In this document: piece after piece, positions 4,245 to 4,868 of the stretch
Position numbering within the stretch: position 1 is the stretch's first letter
How the letters are laid out: each line of letters starts with the position of its first letter
Assembly (NCBI GenBank): GCA_965249835.1
Contig: CBDFMY010000003.1
Span: forward strand, 289,602-353,601
Source of the DNA: Candidatus Poriferihabitaceae bacterium
Lineage (GTDB): Bacteria; Pseudomonadota; Gammaproteobacteria; Arenicellales; Poriferihabitantaceae
Length of the DNA: 64,000 nucleotides
Reading direction: 5' to 3'
Position numbers and translations under genes: made by a program
Notes under the pieces: generated by a model
Database searches by the model: none
Told to the model about the DNA's origin: nothing
What the model saw: only the letters and a program-made list of their open reading frames with translations

Positions 4245-4535
4245 ATGAAACCAGATTTTTTATTTGTTTTGTTCACGGTGCCGTTAAGTTTGCAGATCGG
4301 GTCCGGTCAACATTCTGTTGGCCGGTTTGGGGCAAATCATGGGATTCGTAAAAATCCGCCATTTGTCGGTGGTTTGATTTGTTCGGTAACGCTGATTTCG
4401 ATTGCCTGCTTGCTAGGGCTGCAAGTTTTTCTACAAAACAAGATTGTTTATCGAGGTTTGATTATTGTCGGATCGTTTTACATCATGCATCTGACTGTTA
4501 AGTTGTATCGTCTGCAGTCGCAAAATATTGAAAAA
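4245..4535 (+). pseudogene. N-terminal ~95-aa stub of an RhtB/LysE-family amino-acid exporter
   Basis: The translation ...LSLQIGSGQHSV...GLIIVGSFYIMHLTVKLYR parallels the first two TM helices of RhtB (LSLSPGSGAIN...LKWAGAAYLIWLGIQQWR). The rest of the family's ~200 aa is absent. The frame simply reads on into rRNA sequence. Confidence 0.6.
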
Positions 4536-4538
4536 AGC

Positions 4539-4758
4539 CTCGACTCCATGAAGTCGGAATCGCTAGTAATCGCGGATCAGAATGCCGCGGTGAATACGTT
4601 CCCGGGCCTTGTACACACCGCCCGTCACACCATAGGAGTGGGCTGTATCAGAAGTGGGTAGACTAACCGCAAGGGGGTCGCTTACCACGATGGTTCATGA
4701 CTGGGGTGAAGTCGTAACAAGGTAGCCCTAGGGGAACCTGGGGCTGGATCACCTCCTA
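4539..4758 (+). rRNA. Orphan 3'-terminal fragment of 16S rRNA (about E. coli positions 1315-1542: helices 43-45 and anti-Shine-Dalgarno)
   Basis: The fragment reads CTCGACTCCATGAAGTCGGAATCGCTAGTAATCG...GAATACGTTCCCGGGCCTTGTACACACCGCCCGTCACACCAT...GGGGTGAAGTCGTAACAAGGTAGCC...GGATCACCTCCT. Nothing 16S-like lies upstream of 4539. No tRNA-Ile/Ala or 23S lies downstream. Confidence 0.9.
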
Positions 4759-4834
4759 CACCAAAAGAGACTTCATCGTTTCGGAGCGTCCACACAATTT
4801 TCTTGGATGGTTGAACAAGAAGGTCCATAACGCA

Positions 4835-4868
4835 ACGCGCGGGATTTTAAATTCCCGTGCGTTTTTTT
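4835..4868 (+). terminator. Rho-independent terminator downstream of the 16S fragment
   Basis: 10-bp stem ACGCGCGGGA / TCCCGTGCGT (one G-U pair), 8-nt loop, then a run of 7 T (4862-4868). Confidence 0.7.

Follow-up and report, generated by a model that had tools for sequence, protein, structure and literature searches.

The window, by which we mean the whole 64,000-nucleotide stretch of DNA analysed here, contains an open reading frame at 4245-4661 that begins as a LysE/RhtB exporter gene and passes directly into the tail of a 16S rRNA gene. This feature is very probably a non-functional genomic scar, in which a piece of an rRNA (rrn) operon was joined by illegitimate, low-homology recombination to an inactivated lysE gene, inside a low-GC island bounded by insertion sequences (IS). 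It combines a protein pseudogene with a partial rRNA pseudogene, and the eroding island bears several scars, of which this is one. A scar of illegitimate recombination or IS-mediated rearrangement was among the explanations that an earlier, sequence-only reading of this DNA had put forward, and it is the best supported of them. The features on which our account depends are collected in Table 1.

Table 1. Features of the relic and the surrounding island (window coordinates).
Feature	Position	Strand	Basis
Low-GC (~46%) accessory island, continues past window start	1..7050	.	composition, Pfam
livF-type ABC ATPase gene, last intact gene upstream of the relic	3440..4141	+	PF00005
LysE/RhtB exporter pseudogene stub, N-terminal ~half	4245..4538	+	PF01810, P0255, DNA alignment to L016
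16S rRNA gene 3' end (E. coli 1320-1540): part of h42, h43, 3' strand of h28, h44, h45, anti-Shine-Dalgarno (anti-SD)	4539..4757	+	Rfam RF00177, alignments
Start of 16S-23S spacer, remnant, box GCGTCCACACAATTTTCTTGG	4758..4808 (right limit uncertain, possibly to ~4833)	+	alignment with spacers of E. coli, L006, L022, L117-119
Predicted intrinsic terminator, hairpin AACGCGCGGGATTTTAAATTCCCGTGCGTT + T7	4834..4868	+	stem/fold analysis
Pair of ABC permease genes (BPD_transp_1), transcribed towards the relic	4887..6282	-	Pfam
Solute-binding protein (SBP) gene, apparently 5'-truncated at IS fragment	6379..7050	-	Pfam SBP_bac_3
IS remnants, right island border	7047..8471	.	Pfam rve_3/HTH

Anatomy of the fused relic

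The first part of the reading frame matches the Pfam LysE family (PF01810) weakly, at 27 bits against a cut-off of 25.6, over profile positions 3-99 of 193. It is also 59% identical to one LysE-domain protein, P0255, the gene of which is near full length; together these matches bear out the resemblance of the first ~95 codons to an RhtB/LysE N-terminus that had been noticed from the sequence. The locus of P0255, on a contig of 45% GC (L016), is the sole homologue and served as the reference for indels in the stub. Relative to it, DNA alignment places a +1 and a -1 frameshift in the stub, 46 nt apart, and similarity stops at ~4538; in terms of the profile, the protein breaks off at about position 85-99 of 193. 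The missing 3' end was sought downstream of the rRNA piece, where nothing similar to L016 was found, and a locus in a 47% GC genome whose LivF is 80% identical (L005) carries no lysE remnant after livF. The final 41 codons of the frame are translated 16S rRNA, and in L001, the locus of a sister strain, the start codon has changed from ATG to ATC and two further frameshifts are present. Hence the stub is like LysE/RhtB exporters in that its N-terminal ~95 residues align to the family, but unlike them in being truncated and frameshifted, with no single open frame that holds the complete six-helix domain of ~190-210 aa and a start codon that is gone in L001. The 16S codons, the frameshifts and the lost start codon uphold the earlier view that ORF 4245-4661 is not a gene. 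As a 138-aa chimeric ORF (P0254) it is nevertheless present in public protein collections (NCBI and ENA sources), recorded as a LysE-domain protein.

From 4539 onwards the DNA belongs to the 16S rRNA gene. In alignment with E. coli rrsH the first 16S base of the window (4539) corresponds to E. coli position 1320, the terminal GGATCACCTCCT ends at 4757, and 88.7% of bases match. The h44-h45 core (4616-4746) matches RF00177 at 106 bits (E=2e-29, gathering score 50), while a local search with the same model scores 159 bits and reaches the last model position, 1533, at window 4759. Model positions ~1310-1533 alone are covered; what is 'aligned' upstream is filler with large unaligned blocks. The window holds a single copy of the 34-mer at 4539-4572, and 0/100 shuffles contain it. 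The sequence-only reading had set the same limits for the 16S 3' domain, and both the Rfam model and the E. coli alignment agree with it. In h43-h45 and in the anti-SD tail the piece agrees with the 3' minor domain of bacterial small-subunit (SSU) rRNA, both in sequence and in secondary structure, with h44, h45 and that tail all in place apart from two unpaired positions caused by a 2-nt deletion; it is unlike the complete gene of ~1530 nt, with its 5', central, 3' major and 3' minor domains, in that it makes up just 14% of the molecule and cannot assemble into a 30S subunit.

Three differences mark the piece. The conserved CACCATAGGAG has an unusual A at 4634 (E. coli G1415; G1415A), where G is found in 95/96 of the fetched 16S-bearing loci and the one other A is that of L001. 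This is the single deviating conserved position that had been remarked on before, and to it are now added a second private transition, T at 4648 (C1429T), common to the window and L001 with C in E. coli and all aligned relatives, and the deletion of GT after 4689, confined to the window. Apart from L001, neither substitution was seen in any of ~95 other 16S genes, E. coli included. In L001 the two nucleotides are still there and make up a perfect 10-bp segment of h44; the deletion costs the window two base pairs of that helix.

The first ~50 nt past the 16S end are genuine rrn spacer of gammaproteobacterial type, a detail that had been overlooked. They carry the box 'GCGTCC-ACACAAnnTnCTTG' ('GCGTCC-ACACAA..T.CTTG'), which is found 30-45 nt past the end of 16S in E. 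coli and likewise in all fetched rrn operons of gammaproteobacterial type, ten or more of them metagenomic. BLAST homology of the rRNA piece to rrn loci stops at ~4805, and judged from these alignments the captured segment is the 16S tail with the start of the spacer, ~270-290 bp of an rrn operon. Whereas intact operons have tRNA-Ile ~130 nt past the 16S end, the window has a hairpin followed by seven T at 4834-4868. As had been proposed for a site ~75 nt beyond the 16S end, this element has the form of an intrinsic terminator, a GC-rich hairpin directly before a U tract, and is predicted to act on the plus strand only; its stem is counted here as 11 pairs (one G.U, seven GC), with a folding energy of -20 kcal/mol (z=-4.1). 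The segment 4800-4890 was also sought as a repeat or miniature element (MITE), with no second copy in the window or the related loci.

No other 16S piece, tRNA, 23S or 5S gene lies within 1-12000, in agreement with the earlier statement that neither 16S upstream nor spacer tRNAs and 23S downstream were to be seen. The whole window holds no further rRNA and a single tRNA, at 28.4 kb (28409-28481). Hence the organisation of an rrn operon, with promoter, leader, 16S, spacer tRNA, 23S and 5S, is absent, and what remains beyond the 16S tail is ~50 nt of spacer.

The island and its sister strains

The livF product immediately upstream of the relic matches P0001 (233 aa) at 100% identity, and homologues at 97-99% anchor three further loci (L001-L003), all on large contigs from ENA long-read metagenome assemblies that were found through this protein. 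L001 is part of a contig of 2.8 Mb in the assembly ERZ26167708, with '1173x' in the contig name. It is 99.1% identical to window 1-6134, with ~50 scattered differences and SNPs of its own, and it has the lysE|16S junction, the spacer remnant and the terminator in an identical layout. In L002 and L003 (96% identical) the shared island DNA stops at window 4441, still within the stub, and gives way to unrelated DNA of ~55-59% GC beside prfC. Both are without the 16S piece, which is thus present in two of the four island-bearing strains. The -1 deletion in lysE is common to all four, from which it follows that the gene was already dead in their common ancestor, and the +1 insertion upstream of it is confined to the window and L001.

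In order, the island holds livK'HMGF (+), the lysE stub, the rRNA piece, a polar-amino-acid ABC permease and SBP set (-) and IS remnants. The two permease genes are not followed by an ATPase gene. The SBP reading frame begins at SBP_bac_3 profile position 9, adjoins an rve_3 fragment and has, by eye, no leader resembling a signal peptide. The IS remnants are a C-terminal piece of an integrase (7047-7229, -) and, beyond it, a split HTH and rve transposase (7422-8471, +). At ~46% GC, positions 1-7050 stand against a remainder of the window that is mostly core genes of ~55-60% GC, in a genome of ~57% GC. The nearest relatives of the island genes come from contigs that are low in GC throughout (LivF from L005, 47%; LysE from L016, 45%), and for this reason the island looks horizontally acquired. 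The earlier suggestion of a horizontally acquired patch therefore stands as far as the location of the fragment is concerned.

The right end of the island and its genomic context differ in each lineage. The second permease gene is truncated in L001, where the island stops within it, at window ~6117-6134 and at a repeat of ~96 bp that recurs near an IS in L002. In the window the island adjoins dprA, and BLAST homology of the core genome to L120, another locus of L001's genome, resumes at 8409; the dprA-smg-topA-rpoC region is collinear with L120, which in that genome is separated from the island by ~250 kb. Near-identical Smg proteins are recorded on >30 contigs in the Smg cluster. Erosion of the island's right half takes a different course in each strain.

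Dispersed repeats of ~85-100 bp, at window 39309-39392, L002 11411-11495 and 1275-1369, and L001 12680-12775, were observed at or near the breakpoints of the island in sister strains; they could be what is left of MITEs or IS ends and could mediate the rearrangements. A recent lateral exchange of the island between strains was considered, given 99.1% identity of the island to L001 as against 97.0% for the core overall, and was dropped, as conserved core genes also reach ~98-99.6% per kb. The low core figure was traced to the stretch at 12-17 kb, which is 92-96% identical to L120 as against ~98-99.6% for neighbouring core genes. That stretch holds an ORF of 1009 aa in which Sacsin and NOV_C domains were recognised (12804-15833, -), within an insert of 35-38% GC between topA and rpoC that is also present in L120.

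Formation, origin and decay

Homology of the stub to L016 extends up to '...GAAAAAAGCC' at 4538 and 16S homology begins with 'CTCGACTCC' at 4539. The two overlap by 0-2 nt of microhomology and no IS end is present at the lysE|16S joint, a combination that is the signature of illegitimate recombination. From this we infer that an rrn piece of ~270-290 bp, comprising the last 220 nt of 16S and the first ~50 nt of spacer, was joined by such low-homology recombination to the middle of a lysE-type exporter gene that had already been inactivated, inside the IS-bounded low-GC island of a fast-rearranging genome. Two routes could have led to this arrangement. An rrn operon may once have stood between lysE and the permease genes, to be reduced by one deletion from lysE into 16S and another from the spacer to the operon end, in which case the hairpin would be the operon's own terminator. 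Alternatively, a single break or deletion in lysE may have been patched with a stray rrn fragment, and the hairpin would then be the old lysE terminator, converging on the permease operon.

The source of the rRNA DNA was sought by several searches. Among contigs representing one genome per species there was no exact match to an h44 37-mer, nor to the 16S end with the spacer box, and a metagenome scan with a degenerate h44 31-mer also returned no match. A looser metagenome scan, with the right strand of h44, recovered 100 rrn loci, the closest of which reaches 95.5% identity over the 219 nt; none of the 100 has a near-identical spacer. The piece combines the h44 tip of the L108 group with the h45 and spacer type of L022 and L117-119. 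A protein search with the translated 16S piece recovered spurious ORFs inside the 16S genes of other organisms, and the rrn loci reached in this way (L006-L015, of tyrS-rrn type, 85% identical to the piece with its spacer start; L117-L119, 93%) included none of the host genus, a weak negative in that the search missed the window's own ORF, P0254. Clearly derived changes in the piece are few, 2-4 common to both strains and ~2 private to each, a lower number than would be expected of a piece older than the split from L002 and L003, which are ~5x more diverged. The count leans towards formation after the island was resident. On this ground the source may be the host's own rrn, a lean that is slight, as the counts are small and the variable positions are not polarisable.

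We see a small chance that matters stand otherwise in one of two ways: the piece may have belonged to a donor organism's rrn and travelled with the low-GC island into the genus, or it may have persisted through a regulatory or decoy effect of liv transcripts with an exposed anti-SD and helix 45. If the former were true, a donor-derived 16S tail would be direct physical evidence for horizontal transfer of rRNA-operon DNA.

Under the recombination reading, the piece would be at most a passive passenger at the 3' end of transcripts that read through from the liv operon and stop at the 4834-4868 hairpin, and would have evolved without constraint since its formation. Between the window and L001 there are 39 change events in the 5372 nt of flanking genes and 10 in the 513 nt of stub and 16S, a density 2.7x that of the flanks (Fisher p=0.008, Poisson p=0.005). 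This significance requires the stub, as the 16S piece alone, with 4 events in 219 nt, does not differ significantly from the flanks (p=0.09). All three indels of the 6.1-kb alignment fall inside the 513 nt, for which the uniform chance is (513/6117)^3 = 6e-4, although two of the three are changes in homopolymer length and may be consensus errors in either assembly. In L001 a T is inserted in the universally conserved CTCCATGAAG of the 16S piece. In line with the 2-nt deletion, the h44-h45 core scores 106 bits in the window as against 114 in L001. Polarisable substitutions are mostly GC>AT, as unconstrained decay predicts. The piece is still a near-perfect 3' minor domain with an intact anti-SD, which indicates that it is young.

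The most speculative proposal of the sequence-only reading, a functional anti-SD RNA, receives no support from this pattern. Such an RNA, either the 3' tail of the liv operon or a separate transcript of ~330 nt, would expose h44/45 and the anti-Shine-Dalgarno as a decoy or regulator, for instance by titrating SD sequences, an h45 methyltransferase or 16S-directed toxins. It could draw on the largely intact h44/h45 and CCUCC, on the strong predicted terminator downstream and on the fact that no strong terminator was found between livF and the rRNA piece, through which liv transcripts might reach it. A promoter scan, however, returned no promoter-like site on the plus strand in 4000-5100, and no Rfam family other than SSU rRNA matches the piece. 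Nor does it show the retention and the purifying or compensatory evolution of a conserved functional ncRNA, being missing from L002 and L003, accumulating indels in conserved helices between two strains that are ~99% identical, and changing at a density no lower than that of the neighbouring genes. We consider a function of this kind very unlikely.

Equally hard to credit is a duplication at an integration site, in which a mobile island inserted in the 3' end of a 16S gene, as others do in tRNA and tmRNA genes, and left a displaced or duplicated 16S tail at one of its ends. The fragment is indeed a 3' end, in a low-GC island with IS and transposase genes at its borders that occupies different genomic contexts across strains. 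Yet island DNA lies on both sides of it (the lysE stub to the left, permeases to the right, ~41-46% GC), which makes it internal to the island and not terminal, and its left junction is inside a protein gene. No other 16S is present in the window or in the 20-kb loci L001-L003, and no tyrosine or serine integrase turned up among the scanned ORFs of window 1-15.8 kb or the precomputed gene families of L001-L003. Instead of a target 3' end at both borders and an integrase, there is a single internal copy, in an island whose far left end is beyond the window.

An assembly chimera, with rRNA reads misjoined into a unique region, deserves the least credence of all, for although rRNA repeats are classic misassembly sites, two distinct strains in two independent ENA assemblies share the junction, spacer and terminator, which refutes a misassembly, and private mutations are not expected of a misjoined native 16S read.

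Known counterparts and other observations

As a scar of recombination, the relic is most readily compared with the partial or pseudogenised rRNA genes (rrn remnants) that are known from IS-rich or rearranging bacterial genomes and are routinely flagged by annotation pipelines as 'partial 16S rRNA'. Like these it is a truncated piece of rrn without promoter, 5' domains, spacer tRNAs, 23S and 5S, and it sits among pseudogenes and IS scars and evolves neutrally. Unlike these it continues the reading frame of a lysE stub, such that gene callers emit a 138-aa 'LysE', and it lies in a compositionally foreign island with a strong predicted terminator in place of the rest of the operon; literature searches gave no directly comparable case. 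Unlinked rRNA genes, with 16S apart from 23S-5S and provided with its own terminator, are known from many reduced genomes. The relic shares with them a 16S 3' end, a short spacer and then a terminator instead of tRNA-Ile/Ala and 23S, but it has no 16S body, and the related rrn loci that were fetched (L006, L022, L108) are all linked, with spacer tRNAs.

The entry for P0254 is an annotation error, being a 'LysE' whose last 41 residues translate 16S, and the proper label would be a pseudogene with a partial rRNA. Stray 16S tails of this kind may confuse counts of rRNA copy number and 16S-based binning. The relic is a further sign that an accessory island erodes and moves very fast, in association with IS, between strains that are ~96-99% identical, and it could be used to date or trace those rearrangements; it has no bearing on open questions of ribosome function.

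Several observations were made on other loci. Within L120, upstream of dprA in L001's genome, positions 4497-8447 contain a DUF4007 gene, a 920-aa ORF without Pfam match and an HTH_38 transposase fragment, beside the his operon, and this could be a defence-type insert. In L007, L009, L010, L012 and L013 (at ~9.3-10.3 kb) a 151-aa LAGLIDADG homing-endonuclease ORF occupies a position that, on the map of the sister locus L006, belongs to the 23S rRNA gene; the ORF is missing from L006, L008 and L011, and the lineage is one of unrelated gammaproteobacteria with tyrS-rrn synteny.

Outside the island the window consists mostly of core genes, including rpoBC, tuf, fusA, topA and dprA; among rpsG, fusA, tuf, rpoB and rpoC, the assignment of RpoB was confirmed by search. 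The solved chains nearest to RpoB are 7f0r_C and 7xya_C, from Pseudomonas aeruginosa RNA polymerase, with E. coli RpoB next, and on this basis we regard the host as a gammaproteobacterium. The interval 16036-33000 (-) suggests the order rpsG-fusA-tuf-tRNA-...-rpoB-rpoC on one strand, with names taken, RpoB apart, from the sizes and positions of ORFs, and this order would place str-operon genes directly upstream of the secE-nusG-rplKAJL-rpoBC block. The putative rpoC is one ORF of 1480 aa in the window (16036-20478) and is called as two genes (497 aa and 979+ aa) in the ~99% identical strain, at L120 16275-20483; a frameshift, a genuine split of the gene and an error of assembly are all conceivable causes. 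Finally, GC content drops sharply at 48001-49000 (45%) and 63001-64000 (40%) within a stretch of 55-60% GC, suggesting additional foreign inserts.
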